Shown in pieces: positions 20,951-34,286 of a stretch of 64,000 nt of DNA. Numbering within the stretch: position 1 is the first letter of the stretch; the number at the start of each line of letters is the position of its first letter. Source of the stretch: Planctomycetota bacterium (GTDB lineage Bacteria > Planctomycetota > UBA1135 > UBA2386); NCBI GenBank assembly GCA_965223545.1, contig OZ245006.1, positions 6,688,001-6,752,000 on the forward strand. Reading direction: 5' to 3'. The notes beneath the pieces are model-generated. The model saw only the letters and a program-made list of their open reading frames with translations, had not been told where the DNA came from and did not search any database. The position numbers were made by a program, and so were the translations under genes.

Positions 20951-23674
20951 TCAGCGCGACCGGGGCCGGCGCGACGGGTCGCCGCGCTCGCGGCGGGCTT
21001 GGGCGCGGCGCTCGGCATGCGCTGCGGCTTCGCGCTCCGCCTGCTGCACACCGGCGTCATCGCCGAGCGCCCTGCAGGCGGCGGCCAGCGGGCGGTAGAT
21101 TCGGTCCCATGGTGCGGCGCGCCACGCCAGGTGGGGGCGCAGTGCGGTGAGGTCGGCGGCGCGGGCGAGTGCCGCCGTCAGGCGCTCGCGCGCAAGGGCG
21201 GGGTCGCCGCGCTCGAGGTCGTTGGCGGCGGCCGTGTGCAGCGCCTCGATCAGCCGCCAGAGCTGGTGCACCGCGCTGGGATACTCCTGCCACAGCGGCT
21301 CGAGCACATCGATGGCGGCGGCAAAATCGACATCCGCGCGCTGGCGCAGGTCGGTGGCCGTCGCGGCGTCGGCGGTGGCGCTGGCTTGCTCGGTGAGCAG
21401 TCGGCCGTGCAACAACCGCGCGCGGCCGTACAGCTCGCTGCAGCGCGGCAATGCCCGGTAGCGGTCGCGCAGCTGCCGGGCGCGATCGACCGCAGTCCTG
21501 CTGGCCGCGAGCGCCTCGTCGAGCAGCTGCTGATGGCTTGCCAGCATCAGATACGACTCGATCAGCTCGCATTCGTGATCGGGGATGTCCGGGTGGTTGG
21601 CGGCGAGCTCGTCCAAGGTGCGGATCGCGGTCGCGGCCTGCTCGCCGGCGGCGAGCACCTCGCCCGAGCGAAACAGCATGCGCGCCAGCAGTTGGCGGCT
21701 GCGCGCTTCCAGCATGCGGAACGCCGGGTTGTCCGGCTCGGCTTCGAGCAGGCCCTCGGCGAGCTGCAGGGCGCGCTCGTGCGGTGCCCCCATGCCGTGG
21801 CGCGGCTGGCGGTCGCGCCGGGCCCGCGGCAGCGTGTCGGGCAGGCGGCCGATGCGCTGCAACGCACCCAGATCGTTGAGCACCGCCGCCAGCTCGTAGC
21901 GGCCCTGCAGCTCTTCGGCGCCGCCGGTGGCTGCCAACAGCAGCCGCTCGAGCTGGTGGATCGCGGCGCGGAACTCCTCGCGCGCGCCAGAGCGGTCGCC
22001 GCGGTCCTCGAGCACGTGGCCGAGGCTGCGGCGGACGACCGCGCTGGCCAGCGCCGCCGCCGGGTCGCCGGCGTCTTGCCCGTGGATTGCCAGCGCGCGG
22101 CGGTAGGCGGTCTCGGCGTCGTCGTTGTGCCCGAGCCAGCGGTGGATGTCGCCGACCCGGCGCAGTGCGCGCGCGGTGTCCTGGTGCAGGCGTACATTGC
22201 CGTCGTTGTGCAGCGCAAACGCGTCGTAGAACGTGCAGAGACGTTCCAGTAGCTCGAGCTCGCGCGCAGAGACCACCGGTACCACCGGCACCGTTTCGCT
22301 CGCGTCGTCGAGCATCACCAATCCCCGGTCGCGGCCGGCGATCGCGTCGAACAGGTCGTCGAAGGCCTGCAGCGACAAGTCGAGGTTTTGTTCGGCGCGT
22401 GCGGTGGCGACGCGCTGACCGCGCAGACTGTTCTGCACCCGGTCGTTGGCGTCGCGCTCGCGTCGCAGGGATGCGTCGGCTTGTAGATAGGCGAGCCAAC
22501 CGACGGCGGCGGCGGTCAGCGTCGCGCCGATCGCAGTCGCCGCGCTGATCGCCTGGCCCGGGTTGCGTCGCGTCCAGCGCCATGCGCGTTCGAAGGCGCC
22601 GACGCGCCGCGCGCGCACGGGGACGCCGTCGAGGAAGCGCTGCAGATCGTCGGCCAACGCCGCGCAATCGGGATACCGGTGGGCCGCGTCGATCGACGTG
22701 GCGCGGGCGATCACGGTGCGCAGATCGCGGGGTGTTGCCGGGCGCTGCGCTGCTAGGTCGGGCACCCCCTGCGCACTGATCTGCTTGACCAGCGCGCCGC
22801 GGCCGCTGGCATGGAACGCGCGTTGACCGGTCAACAGCTCGAACAGCGTCACGCCGAGGCCGTACTGGTCGCTGCGCGCGTCGAAGCGGCCATCGAGAAC
22901 CTCCGGCGCGGCGTAGGCGAGCGAGCCGACGAAGTCGCGCGTGCGGGTCACCGCCTGCTGGTCGAGCAGCTTGCCGATGCCGAAGTCGGTGATCCAAACC
23001 GTGCCGTGGGGATCGAGCAACAGGTTGGCGGGCTTGACGTCGCGGTGCAGGACGCCCTGGGCATGGGCGTGGTGCAGGGCGCGCGCGGCTTGCACACCGA
23101 TGCGCGCGACCTCGTGCTCGAGCGCGCCGGCGCCGGTGGGGCGGCGGTCGGCGTAGTGGTCGAGCGCGCCGCCGTCGACGCGCTGCATGGCGTAGTAGTG
23201 CACGCCGTGGTCGAAGCCGGTGCCGTAGATCGGCACGATGTTGGCGTGGTGCAGGCGCGAGGCGATCTCGGCCTCGCGCTGAAAGCGCTCGACTTGTGCC
23301 GCCTCGGCGAACGCCGACGGCGGCAGCACCTTGACCGCGACACGGCGCGACAGCGACACCTGTACCGCGTCGTAGACGATGCCCATGCCACCGCGGCCGA
23401 TCTCGTCGAGCAGCCGGAAGTCGCCCAGGCGTTCGACCCGCTTCCAGTGTGGCCGGCTGAGGCGCTCCACCTTGAGCGCCTCCATCGCTGCGATCGGGGA
23501 CAGGAGCTCGCGCAGCGCTGCGCGGTACCGCGGGTGCCGATCGGCGAACTGGGTGGCGGTGAGCTGCTCGCCATCGCGCAGCTGGTCGGTGAATGCATCC
23601 ACCAGTGCCGCCAGCTCGGCTTCGGTGTCTGCCGCGGCGGGCTCCGGTCCTGGCGTTGCTCTCTCGTCGGTCAC
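20951..23674 (-). CDS. Ser/Thr protein kinase with TM segment and C-terminal TPR-like repeats
   Basis: IGRGGMGIVY, VAVK, HRDVKPAN, TDFG, APE; RRNP followed by a TM; helical repeats. Confidence 0.95.
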   Translation of the reverse strand: MTDERATPGPEPAAADTEAELAALVDAFTDQLRDGEQLTATQFADRHPRYRAALRELLSPIAAMEALKVERLSRPHWKRVERLGDFRLLDEIGRGGMGIVYDAVQVSLSRRVAVKVLPPSAFAEAAQVERFQREAEIASRLHHANIVPIYGTGFDHGVHYYAMQRVDGGALDHYADRRPTGAGALEHEVARIGVQAARALHHAHAQGVLHRDVKPANLLLDPHGTVWITDFGIGKLLDQQAVTRTRDFVGSLAYAAPEVLDGRFDARSDQYGLGVTLFELLTGQRAFHASGRGALVKQISAQGVPDLAAQRPATPRDLRTVIARATSIDAAHRYPDCAALADDLQRFLDGVPVRARRVGAFERAWRWTRRNPGQAISAATAIGATLTAAAVGWLAYLQADASLRRERDANDRVQNSLRGQRVATARAEQNLDLSLQAFDDLFDAIAGRDRGLVMLDDASETVPVVPVVSARELELLERLCTFYDAFALHNDGNVRLHQDTARALRRVGDIHRWLGHNDDAETAYRRALAIHGQDAGDPAAALASAVVRRSLGHVLEDRGDRSGAREEFRAAIHQLERLLLAATGGAEELQGRYELAAVLNDLGALQRIGRLPDTLPRARRDRQPRHGMGAPHERALQLAEGLLEAEPDNPAFRMLEARSRQLLARMLFRSGEVLAAGEQAATAIRTLDELAANHPDIPDHECELIESYLMLASHQQLLDEALAASRTAVDRARQLRDRYRALPRCSELYGRARLLHGRLLTEQASATADAATATDLRQRADVDFAAAIDVLEPLWQEYPSAVHQLWRLIEALHTAAANDLERGDPALARERLTAALARAADLTALRPHLAWRAAPWDRIYRPLAAACRALGDDAGVQQAEREAAAHAERRAQARRERGDPSRRPRSR

Positions 23675-24336
23675 GCGTCGGGCTCGAAGCCGGGAACGCC
23701 ATCCAGCGCCGCGCGCAGCCGGCGCAGCGCGCGCACGTAGCGGTTGGTCGACGCCGCCTTGTGCAGGCCCAGGACCTCGGCGGCTTGGTTGTTGGTGAGC
23801 TCTTCGAAATGACGCAGCACCAGGATCTCGCGGTCGGTCTCCGACAGCTCCTCGAGCACGAGCTGCAGGCGCTCGATCATCTCGGCGCGCACCGCGGCGC
23901 GCGTCGGCGTGGTCTGCGCGCCGAACAGCTGGTCGGCGAGGTGCGCCGCGGTGGCGTCGGGGCCGGGGCCGGCGATCTTGCGCTCGGCGCCGACACCGCG
24001 CTTGGCGGCGTGCAGGTGGTGTCGGGTGACGTCGACCAACGTCTGCATCGCGATGCCCCGCAGCCAGACGAACGTCGAGGCGTCGTTCTTGGCGAAGTGC
24101 TGCAGCCGCTGGGCGGCGGCGAAGAACGTGTCCTGCAGCACGTCCTCGGCGTCGACGCGGCCGTTGAGCCGGGGATCCATCCGCAGCCGAATCACGCGCG
24201 TCAAGCGCTCACGGAAGCGGTCGAGGACCGTGCCGAGGGCTTGCTCGTCCGCCGCCCGCAGGCGGTGGAGCGTGTCCGGGTCCACATCCGGGTCTTCGGT
24301 CGCCGGCGGTCTGGTTTCACTCACCAAGGGGAGCAT
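23671..24336 (-). CDS. ECF sigma factor coupled to the kinase
   Basis: RVDAEDVLQDTF, FVWLRGI, DREILVLRHFEELTNNQAAEVLG; stop overlaps the kinase start. Confidence 0.9.
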   Translation of the reverse strand: MLPLVSETRPPATEDPDVDPDTLHRLRAADEQALGTVLDRFRERLTRVIRLRMDPRLNGRVDAEDVLQDTFFAAAQRLQHFAKNDASTFVWLRGIAMQTLVDVTRHHLHAAKRGVGAERKIAGPGPDATAAHLADQLFGAQTTPTRAAVRAEMIERLQLVLEELSETDREILVLRHFEELTNNQAAEVLGLHKAASTNRYVRALRRLRAALDGVPGFEPDA

Positions 24337-24371: not shown

Positions 24372-24728
24372 TCACCGGCGCCGGCGCGCATCGCCACGGC
24401 GACGGTCGCCACGGCGACGGTCGCCACGGCGATCCGGCGCCTTCCGCCCCGGGCCACCGCGCTTGCCGCGCTCGCCGCGGTTGCCGCGCTCGCCGCGGTG
24501 GTTGCGCCGGCCGCGTTCGCGCGCCGTGTCCCGGCGCTCGGCGCGGGCTGCGGCGAATTCCGTGGCGGTGATCACGCCGTCGCCGTTGGTGTCGATGCGC
24601 TGGAACGCGGCCGCCACGCGGTCGCGCGCGGCGTCGCCGCGGCGGCTCTTGCCGCGGTCGCCATCGGCTTGGGCGACGAGTGTCGCCGCCGCGCAGAGAA
24701 AGACGGAGATGCAGTGAATGAGTCGCAT
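24372..24728 (-). CDS. Small secreted EF-hand protein with Arg/Gly-rich tail
   Basis: Signal peptide; FQRIDTNGDGVITATEF EF-hand; RRGDR repeats. Confidence 0.75.
   Translation of the reverse strand: MRLIHCISVFLCAAATLVAQADGDRGKSRRGDAARDRVAAAFQRIDTNGDGVITATEFAAARAERRDTARERGRRNHRGERGNRGERGKRGGPGRKAPDRRGDRRRGDRRRGDARRRR
24391..24432. repeat. 15-bp coding tandem repeat, about 2.8 copies
   Basis: tcgccacggcgacgg twice plus tcgccacggcga. Confidence 0.85.
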
Positions 24729-24843
24729 GCCACGACAAACGCGCGCGCCGGCCGGCCGGAAACGCCCGACTCGGGGTTTCTCGGGCAACGACGGCGTATG
24801 GTGGCGATGTTTGCGTATCGGTTACAAATCGAAAGGACTTCGC

Positions 24844-25956
24844 ATGCGCATCACGGTGGTTTCGGCGGTCTTGCTGTGTGGTGTCGCTCCCGTGGCGGCG
24901 CAGCGCGGCGGCGACCCCGGCGCGGTTTGGCAGCACTTGGCCGAGCGTTACGACGCCGATGGCGACGGCGTCATCACGGCGGAGGAGCACGGCCGCGGCG
25001 AGCGGCAGTTCCGCAACCTCGACCGCGACGGCGATGGAACGATCACCGCCGCCGACTTCGAGCGGCGTGGACGGCGGCCGGGCCGCGGCGCGCGCGGCGA
25101 ACGCGGCGAGCGCCCCGCTCCGCGCGAGGTCGCGCGCCGGTTGGGCGACTTGTTCGGTTCGTTCCTCAACGTGGACGGTGAGCCCGGGCTGTCGGCGGTG
25201 GACTGGCAGCAGCTGCGCGAGCGCTTGGCGCCGGACGAGAACGGCGTGGTCGGCGACGGCGGCGTCGCCGCCGTGCTCGGCCTCGACGGCAAGACGCGCA
25301 TGGCGCGCATGGGCGGCTCGCTCAAGCCGCTGCTGGATCACGATGGAGATGGCGAGCTGCACGTCGACGACCTCGACGCCGTGTTCGCCGCGTTGGATCG
25401 CGACGGCGACGGCCTGATCGAGCAGGGCGACGAGATCGACATGCCGCCAGGGGTTGGCGAGATGGCGCCCGACTTCAGCCTGCCGTTCGCCGGCGACGCC
25501 GACCGCGAGTTGCGCCTGTCGAGCCATCGCGGCGAACGGCCGGTGGTGTTGATCTTCGGCTCCTACACTTGACCCCCGTTCCGCGCGTCAGCCGGTCGGC
25601 TGACAGAGCTGTACGAAGCCTACAAGGATCGCGTCGCGTTCTACCTGGTCTACATCCGCGAGGCGCACGCCCTCGACAGCCGTTCGCCGATGGCGTTCGG
25701 CATGGTCGAGGACCCGGTCGACGACGGTGAGCGTTCTGCCGTGGCGAAGCGGTGCGTCGACGACCTGGACTTGCCGATGCCGGCCTTGATCGACCGCATC
25801 GACGACGCGGTCAACCAGGCCTACAAGGGCTGGCCCGACCGGCTGTACTTGGTCGATCGCGAGGGCAAGATCGCCTACGCCGGCGGCCGCGGACCGTTCT
25901 TCTTCTCGACGGACGCGTTGGAGGAGCGGCTGCAGGCGGTGGTCGGGGAGCAGTAG
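24844..25956 (+). CDS. Secreted multi-EF-hand / iodothyronine deiodinase-like selenoprotein (UGA 25570-25572 read as Sec243; 370 aa)
   Basis: Track ORFs 24718-25572 and 25690-25956 share a frame and join across one TGA: APDF...RPVVLIFGSYT-U-PPFR...LVYIREAH...AYKGWPDRLY...AGGRGP, the deiodinase signature. SECIS-like hairpin follows. Confidence 0.88.
25587..25604 (+). promoter_or_regulatory. Putative bacterial SECIS hairpin
   Basis: GTCAGCC-ggtc-GGCTGAC, perfect 7-bp stem starting 14 nt after the UGA. Confidence 0.75.
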
Positions 25957-27179: not shown

Positions 27180-30100
27180 CTATCGGGGGCCGACGAAGAT
27201 GCGGGTGCGCAGGGTCTCGCCTTCGATGTTTAGGTCCGCGGTGCCGTGCCAGCCGAGGGCGCGCTCGGTGATCTCGACGCGGTAGTGGCCGGGGGCGAGG
27301 CCGAGGTGCTCGATGATCAGGCGCTCGGCGGGGACGTCGTAGGTGCGCGCGATCCAGCGTCGCACGGCTGCGTGGCGACCGTCTTGGGGCCGCACTTCGA
27401 TGGCGCAGAGGGCGACTTCGACGGCGTCGTCGCGGGGCGCGAACTGCAGCTCGAGGACGGCGTCGGCGGCGGGGTCGGCGACGACGCGCACGCTGCGTCG
27501 TTCGCCGGGGGTGAGCCGAAGGACTTGTTCGTGGACTGCGATGCCCGGGCCGCTGACCTGAAGGCGCCAGGATCCGGCGCCGAGCGCGGTTGCTGCGTAG
27601 CGACCCGCGCCGTCGCCAGTGGCGTCGATTCGGCTGCCGGAGTCGGGGTTGCGCAGCGTGACGTTGGCGTGCTCGCAGGGGGTGCCTTCTGCGGTTGTGA
27701 CCAGCACGGTGACCGCGGCCGGGGCCGCGAAGACGAGCGCTCCGAGGTCGACCGTTGGGCGGCCGCTGTCGAGCTGCAGCTCGAGCACGCGGGGCGCGCG
27801 ACCGCGAGGCTCGATGCGCAGGTGATACTCGCCGAGCGGCAGCCCGCCGAGTTCGAACGCGCCATCTTCGACCGAGGCGTGGGCGCCGCGCGCCACGGGC
27901 CAAGCCGTCTGCATCAGCGTCAACCGCGCGCCGCCGAGTGCCTGCCCGTGGTCGTCGATCGCGCGGCCGCGGATCGCGCCCCGCGGCTCGGAGACCCGTC
28001 GGGCGACCAGCTCGTGGCGTCGGTTCCCGCTGCGCAGCGGCCCGAACCGCTGTCCAGGGAAGACGTCCGCCTCCGCGCCGCGCCCATGCACCGTGATCAG
28101 ATACTCGCCCGTGGGAATGTCGCTGAAGGACACCACTCCGCTGGCGTCGGTTGCCGCCGTTTCGACGCGGGGCGGTTCGCCGCGGTGCGTGGCCCGCAGC
28201 CAGACGCGCGATAGCGGCGCACCACCTCGGTCGACGATGCGCACCGAGAGCTCGTCGCCGGTCCCCAGCCGCGCGTCCCAGCGCGCGGTGGCGCCGCACT
28301 CGAGGTCCAGGGCCGTGTGCGTCGTGTCGCGCGCGCGGCGCGCAGTCAGCCGCGCGCGCCCCGGCGGAAGGCCCGCCAGAGCGAAGCCGCCGGCGGCATC
28401 GGTTCGGGTCTCGGCTACACCGAGGTCCGACGCCAACGCCGCGAGGTCGAGGCCGGATACCGATAGTCGCACCGCCACGCCTTGGAGCGGCGCGCCGTCT
28501 GCACTCCGCACGGTTCCCGCCACTGCGGCGCCGTCACCGATCGCGAGCTCGAGCCACCGCGGTGCGTCCGGAGTGAGGCGCACGCGCCGTGCCGCGGCGG
28601 TGAACTCTCCACCGTCGGGCGCGCGGGCGATCGCGATGTAGTCGCCCGTCGTGACTTCGTCGGTGCGGAATCCACCGGCCGCATCGCACAGCAGGAGCGT
28701 TCCTCGAGTGGTGCCGTCGACGACCCTCGCCAACGCCACCAGGGCGCCCGGGACTGGTGCCCCGTCGTGCGTGACGCGGCCGGCGATCTCGACGCCGACC
28801 GCCCCGAGCTCGAGGTCGATGGCGACGCGATCCCCGGCCGCGCCGAACACCATCGCGGCGGCCGAGGGCGCCCGACCGGCGGCTCGGGCGCGCAGGCGGG
28901 CGCCCTGCGCGATCGCCGCGACCTCGTATCGGCCGTCGGCGGCGCTGGTCGCGACCAGCAATCCCCCGGGTGGCGATGTCGCGTGGCTGGCCCACACCGA
29001 GGCGCCCGGGACCGGGAGACCGTTGGGCGTCCGGATCGTGCCATGCGCGGTCGGCGCGCCTCGCAGCGTCAAGCTCACCTCGGTCGTGGCTCCGCCGCGC
29101 ACGTGTGCGTCGACAGTTTCCGGTTGGCGGTCCAGCCCCACCCGGTAGGCGCCCGCTGCGAGGTCCTCGAACACGGCGGGTCCGACGGTCGGGTCGAACA
29201 CCGCGGAGCGCGATGGTGCGCTGTTGTCGCCCTCCGTGCGCACGGCGAACACGCGGAGTGCGGACTCGGTCGGCGTTGCCCCGCGCACCGTGACGCGCAG
29301 CGCACCCACCGAGATCGGGGCCGCCGCCGGCGGAGAGGCCGTCGCCCGCGACGCCAGCGTCTCGTCGGCCGTGCCGCCCCGTCCCAAAGGTGCGGCGCGC
29401 AACGCGCGGGTCGCGACACTGGTCGGTGGTTGAGCCGAGGCTGGCCCCGGCGGATCTGCGCGGGTCACGAGCAGCAGCGCGAGCGCAACCAAGCCGAGGC
29501 CGGCACTGCCCGCCCACAGGGTGGTCGACGTCGCCCAGCGATGGGCGGCCACCCGACTGCCCCGTGCAACCTCCGTCGGAGTCGTCGCCAGCGGGGTCCC
29601 GCGGCCCGAGACCCGGGTCAGCAGGCGCGTGCGCACGGCATCGAGCGCGACGGGGGGCGGCCCCGTGTCGACCACCGCGATTCCCGCGAGGCCGGTCGGC
29701 AGCCGCGCCCGCAGCTGATCCAACCCCCGCACCAGTTGGGTCCGCACGGTGCCCGCCGGCCGATCGAGGGTGTCGGCGATCTCTCGACAGCTCAACCCGT
29801 GCTCGAAGTGGAGGACGATGACCTGCCGATAGTGCACGGGCAGCGCCGCCACCGCCTCACGACATACGGCGGCCCGCTCGCGATGCGCGGCATCGCTGGC
29901 CGGTTCCCTTCCTTGCCAAGGGCGGAGGGCGTCGGTCCAGCGCCGTGGGTCGACGCGCCGCCGCCTCCGCCTCCCCTCGTCCCGCGCCCGGTGGACGAGG
30001 ATGCCCAGCAGCCACGGCAGCAGGGGCATTCGCGGATCCCACTGTTCGGCCGTCTCGATCGCCGCCAGGTAGGTCGTCTGCAGCAGATCCTCGGCGCCAC

Positions 30101-30221
30101 CCGTTCCGGCCAGGTACCGGGCGACGCGGGCCAGTTCGGGCGCCGTCGCGTCGAACACCGCCGCCAGTGCGGCGGGGGCCTTGGTGTCGCGAAAGCGCTG
30201 GAAGTCTCGCTCTGGTGTCAT
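27180..30221 (-). CDS. ECF sigma factor fused via a TM to carboxypeptidase-regulatory-like beta-sandwich repeats
   Basis: AEDLLQTT...PWLLGI; LPVHYRQVIVLHF...TVRTQLVRG; TM LGLVALALLLV; repeated G.V....G.PV.GA.V...TD..G.F...L..G.Y units. Confidence 0.85.
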   Translation of the reverse strand: MTPERDFQRFRDTKAPAALAAVFDATAPELARVARYLAGTGGAEDLLQTTYLAAIETAEQWDPRMPLLPWLLGILVHRARDEGRRRRRRVDPRRWTDALRPWQGREPASDAAHRERAAVCREAVAALPVHYRQVIVLHFEHGLSCREIADTLDRPAGTVRTQLVRGLDQLRARLPTGLAGIAVVDTGPPPVALDAVRTRLLTRVSGRGTPLATTPTEVARGSRVAAHRWATSTTLWAGSAGLGLVALALLLVTRADPPGPASAQPPTSVATRALRAAPLGRGGTADETLASRATASPPAAAPISVGALRVTVRGATPTESALRVFAVRTEGDNSAPSRSAVFDPTVGPAVFEDLAAGAYRVGLDRQPETVDAHVRGGATTEVSLTLRGAPTAHGTIRTPNGLPVPGASVWASHATSPPGGLLVATSAADGRYEVAAIAQGARLRARAAGRAPSAAAMVFGAAGDRVAIDLELGAVGVEIAGRVTHDGAPVPGALVALARVVDGTTRGTLLLCDAAGGFRTDEVTTGDYIAIARAPDGGEFTAAARRVRLTPDAPRWLELAIGDGAAVAGTVRSADGAPLQGVAVRLSVSGLDLAALASDLGVAETRTDAAGGFALAGLPPGRARLTARRARDTTHTALDLECGATARWDARLGTGDELSVRIVDRGGAPLSRVWLRATHRGEPPRVETAATDASGVVSFSDIPTGEYLITVHGRGAEADVFPGQRFGPLRSGNRRHELVARRVSEPRGAIRGRAIDDHGQALGGARLTLMQTAWPVARGAHASVEDGAFELGGLPLGEYHLRIEPRGRAPRVLELQLDSGRPTVDLGALVFAAPAAVTVLVTTAEGTPCEHANVTLRNPDSGSRIDATGDGAGRYAATALGAGSWRLQVSGPGIAVHEQVLRLTPGERRSVRVVADPAADAVLELQFAPRDDAVEVALCAIEVRPQDGRHAAVRRWIARTYDVPAERLIIEHLGLAPGHYRVEITERALGWHGTADLNIEGETLRTRIFVGPR

Positions 30222-31611: not shown

Positions 31612-31844
31612 GGTTCGGTAGAAGGCGTCTCCATCGCGGTAGCGCGCGCGGTGCCGGACGGCGCACGCCGGCATTCTAGCTGGCCGGCGCTTCCCGGCCC
31701 ACCATGCCCTGCGCGTCACCGACTGGGAGTGCTGCTCGAGGCTGATTGTGCCTGGGGTTTCCGGCCGCGCTCGCGTTTCCAAGGGCGACGGGGACAACCA
31801 CGCCCCGTGCCGCCTCTTCCGCGAGCAACGTCGAGGAAAACGAC

Positions 31845-34286
31845 ATGAGCACCTCTTTCTGCCGGGTGCTTCCGCTGGTCGCCGCTCTATGGGCGAGTCC
31901 AACGGTGGCGCAGTCCTTCATCGCCTACCACGACGCCGACGGGAGCGAGCACGACGCTCAGTACCAGAAGTTGTCGAGCTCGGGCTACCGCCTGATCTCG
32001 CTGTCTTCGTACGGAGGCGTCTCCAACACGCAGTATGCGGCCGTCTGGGCGCAACGATCGGGCCCGAGCTTCGTCGGGTTCAGGGACCTGACGTCGACCG
32101 AATACCAGCAGCTGCTCGACTTCAGCTGCGGCAACATGACGCCGGCGCTCTTGAGCGCGACCGGGTCCGCCGCGGATCCCCGGTTCTCAGGCGTGTTCGA
32201 GAAGACCGGCAACCCATGCCACGCGCGCCACGGTATCGACGAGTCCGAGCTGGCCACCGAAGTCGGCGATGCCCGCAAGAAAGGACTGCGGATCGCCAGT
32301 ATCGACGCGTACGGCGACGCGTCGGACACGCGCTACGTCGTCGCGTTCGAGCCCAACGCCGAGAAACTCGGTTGGGGCCATTACATCGCTTATGGCTCTT
32401 CCACCCATCAGCTGTTCTTCGACACGATGGGACAGACCCTCGCCCGCCCGGTCGATATCGTGTTCAACGACGACCGCACGAGGTTCGTGGCGGTGTGGGA
32501 AGATACGTCCGTCGGTCTGTCCTACTCGCACCACGACATGACGTCGGCGGAGTACCAGGACAAGTTCGACGAGTACTTGGCCAAGGGCCATTACCCGATC
32601 AACGTGCGCGCTGCGGGAACTCCCGGTGTGTTCGCCGCCACCTGGGCGAAGACCGACGTGCCGGACGGGCGCAAGTTCAGCATGACCGGAGTCGACGTCC
32701 CCGAGCTCGTTCTGTTCGACAGCTGGGTGCAACAGTACATGACTGACACGGCGACCCGCGCCGCGTCGCTCGCGATCGTCAAGGACGGTCGGTTGATGCT
32801 GGCGCGCGGCTACACCTGGGCCGAACAGGGCTATCCGTTGGCCCAACCCGACAGCCTCTACCGGACGGCTTCGATCAGCAAGCCACTCACCAGCATTGCG
32901 GTGCATCAGGAGATGGCGCTGCAGCCGAGTGCGATCGCCTACGACACGGCGATGGCCGACCTCTTCGGCAATCCGGTCTATGCCGATCCGCAGTCCAACG
33001 CGATCCAGGTGATGCACCTGCTGACGCACACCTCGGGATGGGATCGCGACGCGCAGACCGGCAGCGGGGTGGACCCGATGTTCTACGACCGGACGATCGC
33101 CAGCGCGCTGGGGATCTCGATCCCGATCTCGACCACGGCCATCCGCCGCTACATGGAGTCGCAGATGCTCGACTTCGCGCCCGGGACCGAGAGTCGATAC
33201 TCGAACTACGGCTTCAGCCTGCTCGGGCGGATCCTCGAGGTGCTGAACCCCGGCAAGACGTATGACGACATCCTGCAGGAGCGCGTGTTCGCTCCGCTCG
33301 GCATCACGCGTGCGGGGATTGGCGCCGCGCACGTGACGGCGGCTGTGCCCGGCGAAGTGCTCTACCATCCCGCCGCGCTCGGCGTTGCGCAGAGCGTCAA
33401 CGCGGCGCTCGAACCTTGGGTGCCGTCGCAGTACGGCGGGTGGAACCAGGGCAACCTCGATGCACACGGCGGTCACGTGATCACCGCGCCCGACTACGCC
33501 AAGATCCTCGCCGCGTTCGATCTCGGCGCGCAGAACCCGATCCTCGGGCCGGTGCAGACCGCCAACATGTGGACCGAGCCGGCGGCGCCGTTCATTCAGG
33601 CCGGGCCCAACATCAACAGCGCCTACCTCAAGGGGTGGGTGCGGAACTCGGTCAAGGGGCCGGGGGGGACGAACCTGGACCTGTACGAGCACGCTGGCAG
33701 CCTGCCGGGCACGCGCACCTACATCGGCCGGCGCGAGGACGGGGTTTCCTTCGTGTTCCTCACCAATGGTCACGAAGCGCTGAACGGTGCCCACGGCGAC
33801 GAGCTCAGCTCGATCGCCAACGTCATCGGCAGCTGGCCGGACCACGACCTGTTCCCCAGCGTGGGCCTGCCCGCGTTGCGCCATGTCCCCGGCAGCGTCA
33901 ACCCGTTCGGCGCATCATGCGTCGGCAGCTTCGGCACACCGGGCACGAGCTATGTCGGCACGCCCGAGGTCGGCATGGTTTTCACCCCGACGTTGATCCT
34001 GGCGAGGCCACAGTCGCCGGCGTTTCTGTTGCTGGGCCAGCGAACGCAAGTACCGCTGCCGGGCGGCATCGGCTGCTTTCGCTACACGACGGCGGGGATG
34101 ATCCTGCCGGCGACGACCTCGCCGGCCGGGACCGCGCAGATCGCGTTGCCGATGCCTGCGACGCCGGCGTTGATCGGCTACGTCTTTGCGGCGCAGTACG
34201 CGTTCCTCGACTCGTCGGCGGGATCGGCCGGGATCGTGACGACGAACGGGCTGGACATCAAGCTCGGCGGGTGGTTGGGCTTCTGA
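31845..34286 (+). CDS. Secreted serine hydrolase (beta-lactamase family) with N-terminal polyglycine-hydrolase/BTRD1-like repeats and shared C-terminal domain
   Basis: Signal peptide; repeated YQ...G......YAAVW units; SISK, YSN and HAG motifs; LLTHTSG. Confidence 0.88.
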   Translation: MSTSFCRVLPLVAALWASPTVAQSFIAYHDADGSEHDAQYQKLSSSGYRLISLSSYGGVSNTQYAAVWAQRSGPSFVGFRDLTSTEYQQLLDFSCGNMTPALLSATGSAADPRFSGVFEKTGNPCHARHGIDESELATEVGDARKKGLRIASIDAYGDASDTRYVVAFEPNAEKLGWGHYIAYGSSTHQLFFDTMGQTLARPVDIVFNDDRTRFVAVWEDTSVGLSYSHHDMTSAEYQDKFDEYLAKGHYPINVRAAGTPGVFAATWAKTDVPDGRKFSMTGVDVPELVLFDSWVQQYMTDTATRAASLAIVKDGRLMLARGYTWAEQGYPLAQPDSLYRTASISKPLTSIAVHQEMALQPSAIAYDTAMADLFGNPVYADPQSNAIQVMHLLTHTSGWDRDAQTGSGVDPMFYDRTIASALGISIPISTTAIRRYMESQMLDFAPGTESRYSNYGFSLLGRILEVLNPGKTYDDILQERVFAPLGITRAGIGAAHVTAAVPGEVLYHPAALGVAQSVNAALEPWVPSQYGGWNQGNLDAHGGHVITAPDYAKILAAFDLGAQNPILGPVQTANMWTEPAAPFIQAGPNINSAYLKGWVRNSVKGPGGTNLDLYEHAGSLPGTRTYIGRREDGVSFVFLTNGHEALNGAHGDELSSIANVIGSWPDHDLFPSVGLPALRHVPGSVNPFGASCVGSFGTPGTSYVGTPEVGMVFTPTLILARPQSPAFLLLGQRTQVPLPGGIGCFRYTTAGMILPATTSPAGTAQIALPMPATPALIGYVFAAQYAFLDSSAGSAGIVTTNGLDIKLGGWLGF

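Follow-up and report, generated by a model that had tools for sequence, protein, structure and literature searches.

A probable exported selenoprotein joining EF-hands to a deiodinase-like domain in a Planctomycetota bacterium

Introduction

Does an in-frame TGA in a bacterial gene end one hypothetical protein, or does it encode the catalytic residue of a larger one, and what would such a protein do? The window considered here, a 64,000-nucleotide stretch of DNA from a Planctomycetota bacterium, raises this question at a locus for which a sequence-only reading had proposed a hidden secreted selenoenzyme, an array of EF-hands fused to an iodothyronine-deiodinase-like domain.

What bacterial deiodinase homologs do has been a standing question since 2005. 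Bacterial Sec and Cys forms of deiodinase-like proteins, together with a bacterial SECIS element, are described in the accessible part of an early survey, which anticipated a redox function distinct from the deiodination of hormones (Zhang, Fomenko and Gladyshev 2005; PMC1088965). Twenty-two Sec forms are given for the GOS data in the available text of PMC2398784. Among marine GOS reads, a protein that combines a deiodinase-like selenoprotein domain with the EF-hand family Pfam13499 carries an extra conserved Cys; the accessible text assigns no role to this Cys and shows no function for the protein (Xu et al. 2021; PMC9402790). Two reviews, in their available portions, treat the family as one of unknown function with the motif UxxC and do not mention EF-hands (PMC9312934, PMC13188914), and the main text of PMC4807772, on planctomycete selenoproteins, does not name the deiodinase. 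The mechanism of the animal enzymes is summarized in the accessible part of PMC10298544. The earlier statement that bacterial Sec homologs exist and have no established function is in line with these sources (PMC1088965, PMC9312934, PMC13188914). In the literature searched, largely without subscription journals, we found no characterised bacterial deiodinase-like member and nothing on deiodinase-like selenoproteins of Planctomycetota.

One gene across an internal TGA

A single frame of 370 codons runs on the forward strand from the ATG at 24844 to a TAG (Table 1), and its sole internal stop is a TGA at codon 243, within FGSYT*PPFR; VYIREAH and WPDRLY follow downstream in the same frame, just as the sequence-only reading had described. 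The start at 24844 is common to close homologs. The read-through protein matches PF00837 at 79.2 bits against a gathering cut-off of 27 (E 3.8e-22), which bears out the proposed deiodinase-like domain, and GC3 is 0.91 both upstream and downstream of the TGA; together these argue that the frame is not a product of chance. A promoter and terminator scan returned no promoter-like site and, within the gene, one terminator-like site, which equals the chance expectation. A look through RNA data sets listed none that contains the locus, a result that speaks neither for nor against expression.

Database gene calls usually cut such genes at the TGA, as had been claimed for this one: P0153, the call of the same gene, has 242 residues and ends before the Sec site, and 74 of 262 homologous proteins (260 database matches and two translations) end at G-S-x-T/S. 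Thirteen database homologs have Trp at the Sec site (P0067, P0138, P0172, P0176, P0177, P0181, P0185, P0187, P0189, P0190, P0192, P0193 and P0195), probably through reading of TGA under code 4 or 25. At the level of the locus, the outcome is an annotation fix in which two 'hypothetical' fragments are one selenoprotein.

Table 1. Features of the gene and its predicted product, in positions of the window.
Feature	Position	Strand	Remarks
Shine-Dalgarno-like AAGGA	24833..24837	+	sequence; 6 nt upstream of ATG
Whole gene, 370 codons, TGA read as Sec243	24844..25956	+	ends in TAG, 25954..25956
Probable Sec/SPI signal peptide, residues 1-19	24844..24900	+	hydrophobicity; predicted cleavage after VAA, before Gln20
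First EF-hand pair, loops 37-48 and 60-71	24952..25056	+	best conserved pair
Middle EF-hand pair, degenerate, about 109-120 and 131-142	25168..25269	+	model secondary structure
Third EF-hand pair, loops 165-176 and 185-196	25336..25431	+	
Deiodinase-like thioredoxin/peroxiredoxin-fold catalytic domain, residues 201-370	25444..25953	+	PF00837; structural matches Dio2 9h48, Dio3 4tr3/4tr4
In-frame TGA, almost certainly selenocysteine 243	25570..25572	+	counterpart of mouse Dio3 Sec170
Predicted bacterial SECIS hairpin, 7-bp stem	25587..25604	+	GGUC loop 25594-25597, begins 21 nt past UGA
YIREAH motif	25651..25668	+	Tyr270, Glu273, His275 = Dio3 Tyr197, Glu200, His202
Cys304, helix 294-307, candidate resolving cysteine	25753..25755	+	not at animal distal Cys position
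Pro331-Asp332-Arg333	25834..25842	+	matches Dio1 Pro-Glu-Arg substrate-site floor
Arg349	25888..25890	+	counterpart of Dio3 Arg275 carboxylate clamp

Selenocysteine at codon 243

Comparative and genomic evidence makes it nearly certain that codon 243 encodes selenocysteine. The genome (8.1 Mb, 91% complete) contains selA, selB, selC and selD, all four of the genes that the sequence-only reading had named as worth looking for, with scores of 74 (tRNA-Sec), 464 (selA), 318 (selB) and 346 bits (selD), each over its cut-off. selA adjoins selD (L018 / L009, G000:C1:1264004-1266329, reverse strand). The latter carries an in-frame TGA of its own at the catalytic site, with a downstream hairpin of a different shape. 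prfB is present as well (G000:C1:3852269-3853294), so that UGA is a stop by default in this genome; the prfB match contains one in-frame TGA, which we take to be the expected autoregulatory frameshift site. The sole tRNA with a UCA anticodon is tRNA-Sec. A genome-wide reassignment of TGA to Trp was rejected, since prfB is present and the three Trp codons of the gene are TGG.

The support for the predicted SECIS element comes from its position and covariation, not from hairpin energy, which by itself is unremarkable (z -0.79 for a 61-nt fold and -1.92 for 43 nt). Over 19 aligned loci, 91% of the cells of the stem are paired and four of the seven pairs show compensatory two-sided change; the covariation score, 0.39, exceeds all slid controls and all 500 shuffles, in a shuffle test that the relatedness of the 19 sequences inflates. 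A G-loop hairpin occupies the SECIS position at 67 of 77 distinct TGA sites and at none of four Cys sites, a small control made up of the loci where TGC or TGT was seen in the DNA; the background is 627 of 10422 other codon positions in the same genes (6%). A looser hairpin window gives 68/77 and 1/4. For the Cys forms in protein databases the codons are invisible, so a 'C' there may include a converted U.

Homologs were expected to carry Sec or Cys at this codon, and it is TGA at the 77 loci and TGC or TGT at the four; among 30 loci fetched from a PF00837 search of the phylum, TGA stands at the site in 29 and TGC in one. selA was found in all 44 genomes tested (a chosen set) that have a TGA-carrying match, whereas of five genomes with a full-length stop-free match it was not found in three (each 99% complete) and was found in two. 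One locus, L082, has TGC at the same site, and selA was not found in its genome. Genomes without a match had selA in 21 of 26 cases, so that selA is widespread in the sample with or without a match. Within the genome itself, a paralog with 49% identity (L022:904-2022; G000:C1, about 1874170-1875288, forward strand) has the same TGA and SECIS hairpin; its true stop is a TGA too. SECIS covariation, TGA-carrying homologs and selA co-occurrence thus uphold the recoding that had been proposed.

Export and the EF-hands

The N-terminus is the only strongly hydrophobic stretch of the protein (Kyte-Doolittle 2.66 for the 11-mer at residue 5, against 0.77 for the best 19-mer beyond it), and 'AQ' at the predicted cleavage place recurs in several close homologs. 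It fits a signal peptide, as had been suggested, and the protein is probably exported.

Four canonical EF-hand loops begin at residues 37, 60, 165 and 185, which are the four that had been quoted earlier, and an AlphaFold2 model (33 sequences, pLDDT 87.7, pTM 0.85) adds two degenerate loop-strand-helix units, at about 109-120 and 131-142. The modelled arrangement is therefore one of three EF-hand-like pairs, rather than the '4-5' loops first counted, followed by the catalytic domain. Several EF-hand models match the read-through protein over their cut-offs (PF13499, 34.9 bits vs 30), and calcium binding is probable on these sequence grounds. The first pair is kept even by the shortest EF-hand homologs (the minimal forms L032, L033 and L035), and the middle pair is more canonical in the paralog and in other homologs. 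In three of the four canonical loops the last residue is Asp, not Glu, a replacement that usually goes with lower affinity.

EF-hands number from two to about six among homologs and are absent from many. They lie N-terminal to the domain in most fusions and C-terminal to it in P0027, P0039, P0212 and P0236; attachment at either end in different homologs suggests that the pairing with the domain is selected. On a quick tree, the presence of EF-hands, labelled by a strict pattern that misses degenerate loops, changes 12 times, at least four of the changes being forced by starred branches.

A deiodinase-like active site

By sequence, the best solved relatives are mouse Dio2 (E 3e-16) and Dio3 (E 1e-14), and Foldseek also ranked Dio2 and Dio3 first (target TM 0.76-0.78). 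In a VIA-align search, which bore on the catalytic domain and barely covered the EF-hand part, Dio3 reached Z 22.1 (178 residues aligned, rmsd 4.3 Å), followed by AhpE and Bcp1 at Z 18.1 and DsbE and ResA at Z 17.6.

Numbering for Dio3 was taken from a sequence alignment (chain offset 113) and checked against the residue names in PMC11592359. Kept with respect to Dio3 are Ser240 (Ser167), Thr242 (Thr169), Sec243 (Sec170), Pro-Pro-Phe, the Tyr, Glu and His of the YIREAH motif (Table 1), Arg333 (Arg260) and Arg349 (Arg275). Changed are Cys168, replaced by Tyr241 as the sequence-only reading had observed for the proximal Cys; Trp207, replaced by Arg280; His219, by Pro291; Cys239, by about Met312; Phe258, by Pro331; and Glu259, by Asp332. 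Among the 77 TGA homolog domains, Ser240, Tyr270, Glu273 and Pro331 occur in all, Thr242 and His275 in 76 and Arg333 in 73. The Arg349 equivalent is present in 21 of the 77 and in 17 of the 25 with EF-hands; His is found at the Pro291 position in seven, and Trp at the Arg280 position in 44, including 3 of the 25 EF-hand forms.

In its accessible text, PMC11592359 names six proton-relay residues (Ser/Thr/Tyr/Glu/His/His), describes Dio2 as having Ala in place of the proximal Cys, and attributes a wider pocket to Dio1, in which Pro replaces the shielding Phe. Five of the six relay residues are kept here, and the sixth, His219, is Pro291. As Dio2 has Ala at the proximal Cys, Tyr241 does not separate the protein from the animal enzymes, and given the Pro of Dio1 in place of Phe, neither change excludes deiodinase chemistry. 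Pro331, which had been weighed as a mark against that chemistry because Dio3 has Phe258, was dropped as an argument once Dio1 was seen to have Pro there. The predicted pocket is Dio1-like, without His219 and both animal cysteines, and with a conserved Cys304 of its own. Besides Sec243, this is the sole Cys of the mature chain, and it is present in 62 of the 77 TGA homolog domains and in 23 of the 25 with EF-hands.

Possible functions

Our preferred reading, which taken as a whole we hold at slightly under an even chance, is a periplasmic Sec243/Cys304 reductase of the thiol or peroxide type. SelB, bound to the GGUC hairpin, would deliver Sec-tRNA to UGA243, and the 370-residue product would be exported to the periplasm. 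There the Sec243 selenolate, presumably tuned by the Ser240/Thr242/Tyr270/Glu273/His275 network common to deiodinases, would attack an oxidised substrate and reduce it by two electrons, the substrate most likely being an S- or O-centred electrophile such as a disulfide, a sulfenic acid or an organic peroxide. Cys304 could then resolve the oxidised selenium to a selenenylsulfide; some atypical 2-Cys peroxiredoxins have their resolving Cys in a helix of this sort. An envelope dithiol relay would re-reduce the enzyme. The EF-hand pairs would bind Ca2+; at the Ca2+ concentrations of the periplasm they would more likely stay loaded throughout and pack against the catalytic domain as a scaffold than act as a switch. 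The whole-chain pTM of 0.85 in the model agrees with two domains held in a fixed position relative to each other.

Several observations lead to this reading: the thioredoxin/peroxiredoxin fold, for which AhpE, Bcp, DsbE and ResA are the best matches below Dio3; the standing of Cys304 as the only other Cys, kept in most TGA homologs; and fusions to TPR arrays, EF-hands, DUF1080 and tandem domains, as general envelope redoxins might have. The anticipated redox role and the extra conserved Cys of the EF-hand fusion, as given in the accessible parts of PMC1088965 and PMC9402790, point the same way. Against it stand an active site, S-Y-T-U-P-P-F, with no CxxC, UxxC or CxxU motif, and a fold and active-site residues nearer to the deiodinases than to thiol oxidoreductases (Z 22.1 vs 18.1). 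The peroxiredoxin signature is PxxxTxxC, and here LIFGSYTU has Ser at -3 and no Pro at -7. Peroxiredoxins, in the available text of PMC2757866, carry a catalytic Arg at the cis-Pro position, whereas Pro331 occupies the probable cis-Pro site, as assigned from topology and not from a residue-level structural alignment. Cys304, moreover, is missing in 15 of the 77 TGA homologs, and no conserved neighbour at 21 loci indicates a reductant or a substrate.

The main rival, which we regard as possible but doubtful, is a reductive dehalogenase of the deiodinase type, in which Sec243 would act in the periplasm on a halophenol or halotyrosine and remove its iodine or bromine, the Tyr/Glu/His network would protonate the ring and Cys304 would recycle the selenium. 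The top matches in sequence and fold are Dio2 and Dio3, five of six relay residues are all but invariant, Pro331-Asp332-Arg333 corresponds to the Dio1 Pro-Glu-Arg floor for the carboxylate and amine, Arg349 corresponds to the Arg275 clamp, and the proximal Cys is absent from Dio2 too in the accessible text of PMC11592359. This has to be set against the loss of the relay His219, the replacement of Trp207 (Trp is rare at this position in the EF-hand forms) and the variable Arg275 equivalent; no conserved neighbour at the 21 loci indicates halogen metabolism, and the literature searched yielded no characterised bacterial member. In its fullest form, a periplasmic selenium-dependent dehalogenase of iodo- and bromo-aromatics with a Dio1-like open pocket, a resolving Cys304 and a Ca2+-loaded lid, ancestral to the deiodinases, this idea appears unlikely, a shade more so than the dehalogenase in general. 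If true, it would reveal the ancestral chemistry behind the thyroid-hormone deiodinases and an overlooked halogen-cycling route, in a family that about a third of the phylum's sampled genomes carry and that gene callers mostly conceal.

A redox sensor gated by Ca2+ or another metal, in which EF-hand occupancy would open or close the Sec site and signal to an envelope partner, seems improbable; animal selenoprotein N, or input to an ECF sigma factor or kinase, would be its analogues. The joining of EF-hands at either end of the domain, with 12 changes on the tree, and the strong conservation of the first pair are consistent with it, as are an ECF sigma factor and a Ser/Thr kinase upstream, which also occur near two other loci. 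Kinase proximity is nevertheless at chance level (3 of 21 loci, where 12% of the genome is no more than 6 kb from a kinase, of which it has about 79), EF-hand number is variable down to none, and periplasmic Ca2+ tracks the medium.

That the TGA truly ends translation or stems from a sequencing error, leaving a secreted EF-hand gene and a short C-terminal ORF or else a pseudogene, is very improbable and already contradicted by the comparative data: an 88-aa ORF does begin at 25690 under translation table 11, but no Shine-Dalgarno was found before the in-frame starts downstream of the TGA, the codon falls on the catalytic residue in mid-domain, the same TGA recurs at 77 distinct loci with SECIS covariation and selA co-occurrence, and, as a weak point against an error, the contigs of two runs, possibly the source sample itself, cover the codon with no other letter. 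What probability remains for the function lies outside these readings.

Genomic neighbourhood

Over 21 loci no conserved operon was found; only the gene and its antisense frames clustered widely, and the other neighbour clusters joined two to three loci each. In the window, a divergent gene on the reverse strand (24372-24728), its start 115 bp from that of the selenoprotein gene, encodes a small secreted protein that has a single EF-hand and ends in an Arg/Gly-rich tail, and was not found conserved beside homologs at the 21 loci. Beyond it lie the ECF sigma factor (about 23671-24291) and then the Ser/Thr kinase with a TPR-like tail (20951-23674); a link of the selenoprotein to this pair was rejected as being at chance level. 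On the other side, a 1013-aa protein (27180-30221, reverse strand) fuses an ECF sigma factor to an extended series of carboxypeptidase-regulatory-like (Ig-like) repeats, and about 31812-34286 (forward strand) encodes a secreted serine beta-lactamase-like hydrolase that carries BTRD1 repeats at its N-terminus.

Distribution and relatives

The wider point is one of scale. PF00837 was found in 106 of 301 genomes sampled across Planctomycetota, and of 121 matches at E <= 1e-16, counted by hand, 115 contain a TGA and six are stop-free, so deiodinase-like proteins may be among the commonest selenoproteins of the phylum. The labelled close relatives are from Planctomycetota. In the ESM Atlas, the top matches of a database homolog are clusters named deiodinase family protein, mostly from Planctomycetota, and 75-87% of their members have EF-hands.

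The quick tree covers 86 catalytic domains and includes neither animal sequences nor a true root; on it the gene falls within a 17-member TGA branch (SH-aLRT 96) composed of its own family and order plus one record labelled Planctomycetota. EF-hands are present in all members but one locus, which is cut by a contig end. This branch is nested in a 27-member branch that includes Cys-type forms from databases, and it is separate from the branch of NF038285 type (G-N-F/L-T-C-G-P-F; SH-aLRT 97).

Other fusions were seen among homologs: PF06439 (DUF1080) in P0074 and P0197, TPR arrays in P0104, P0205 and P0207, an alkaline-ceramidase-like domain in P0032, and two deiodinase-like stretches per chain in P0018, P0042 and P0060; many long homologs have further domains without a Pfam match. 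A second thioredoxin-like group with one in-frame TGA (L040-L046), from relatives of the same family, matches residues about 200-345 at E 1e-11 to 1e-20 and lacks the deiodinase motif; it is probably another selenoprotein family. At L038:1327-3465 the frame continues past the domain end into unrelated enzyme-like sequence, probably through a frameshift in that assembly. A peptide-pattern scan of database genome contigs gave one true relative among three loci, and a metagenome scan with P0169 did not return the locus of P0169 itself.

Comparison with known systems

Bacterial deiodinase-like selenoproteins and their fusion to EF-hands have already been described, and the present protein is not a new kind. 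Like the fusion in the accessible text of Xu et al., it combines a deiodinase-like selenoprotein domain, a Pfam13499 pair and an extra conserved Cys, here Cys304. It shares with the bacterial PF00837 family, as far as the available accounts go, a domain over the cut-off, a catalytic UGA, a predicted SECIS whose small apical loop contains G, and the existence of Cys homologs. Unlike the UxxC motif given in the accessible portions of the reviews, it has SYTUPPF with no Cys at +3, and it adds a probable signal peptide and three EF-hand pairs.

The NCBIfam model NF038285 (deiodinase_rel, a hypothetical equivalog) covers Cys-type proteins with EF-hands and a deiodinase-like domain end to end, and eight of 13 tested proteins score 340-498 bits. 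Its positions 39-85 match the first EF-hand pair of this protein, which falls below the cut-off (214.9 vs 250 bits), as does the paralog (214.5). Among thioredoxin-fold families, peroxiredoxins (Prx/BCP) differ in having PxxxTxxC and Arg at the cis-Pro position, and TlpA/ResA/DsbE in having CxxC (NF002854, 25.5 bits vs 170). The close-set EF-hand pairs, the first with 23 residues from loop to loop, resemble lanmodulin (PDB 6mi5, 8fns) with a weak sequence match, but NF053806 gives 28.2 bits against a cut-off of 135 and an enzyme domain is fused. Pro at loop position 2 is a hallmark of lanmodulin and is absent here. Matches to lanmodulin, XopAW and transaldolase were set aside as EF-hand look-alikes far below cut-off.

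The animal enzymes Dio1, Dio2 and Dio3 share with this protein the fold, Ser-x-Thr-Sec-Pro-Pro-Phe, the Tyr/Glu/His motif, the Pro-acid-Arg of Dio1 type and the Arg275 equivalent. Unlike them, it is predicted to be soluble and exported, with no N-terminal membrane anchor; it has EF-hands, lacks His219, Trp207 and the proximal and distal Cys, has a different Cys (304), and its bacterial SECIS lies inside the coding sequence. Such a soluble, exported protein lends itself more readily to assays and structural work than the membrane-bound animal enzymes, but this copy is no better for that than many. What appears new here, as read from the sequences, is how widely the family occurs in the phylum (106 of 301 genomes, in most cases with TGA), together with a Dio1-like pocket and a conserved Cys304.
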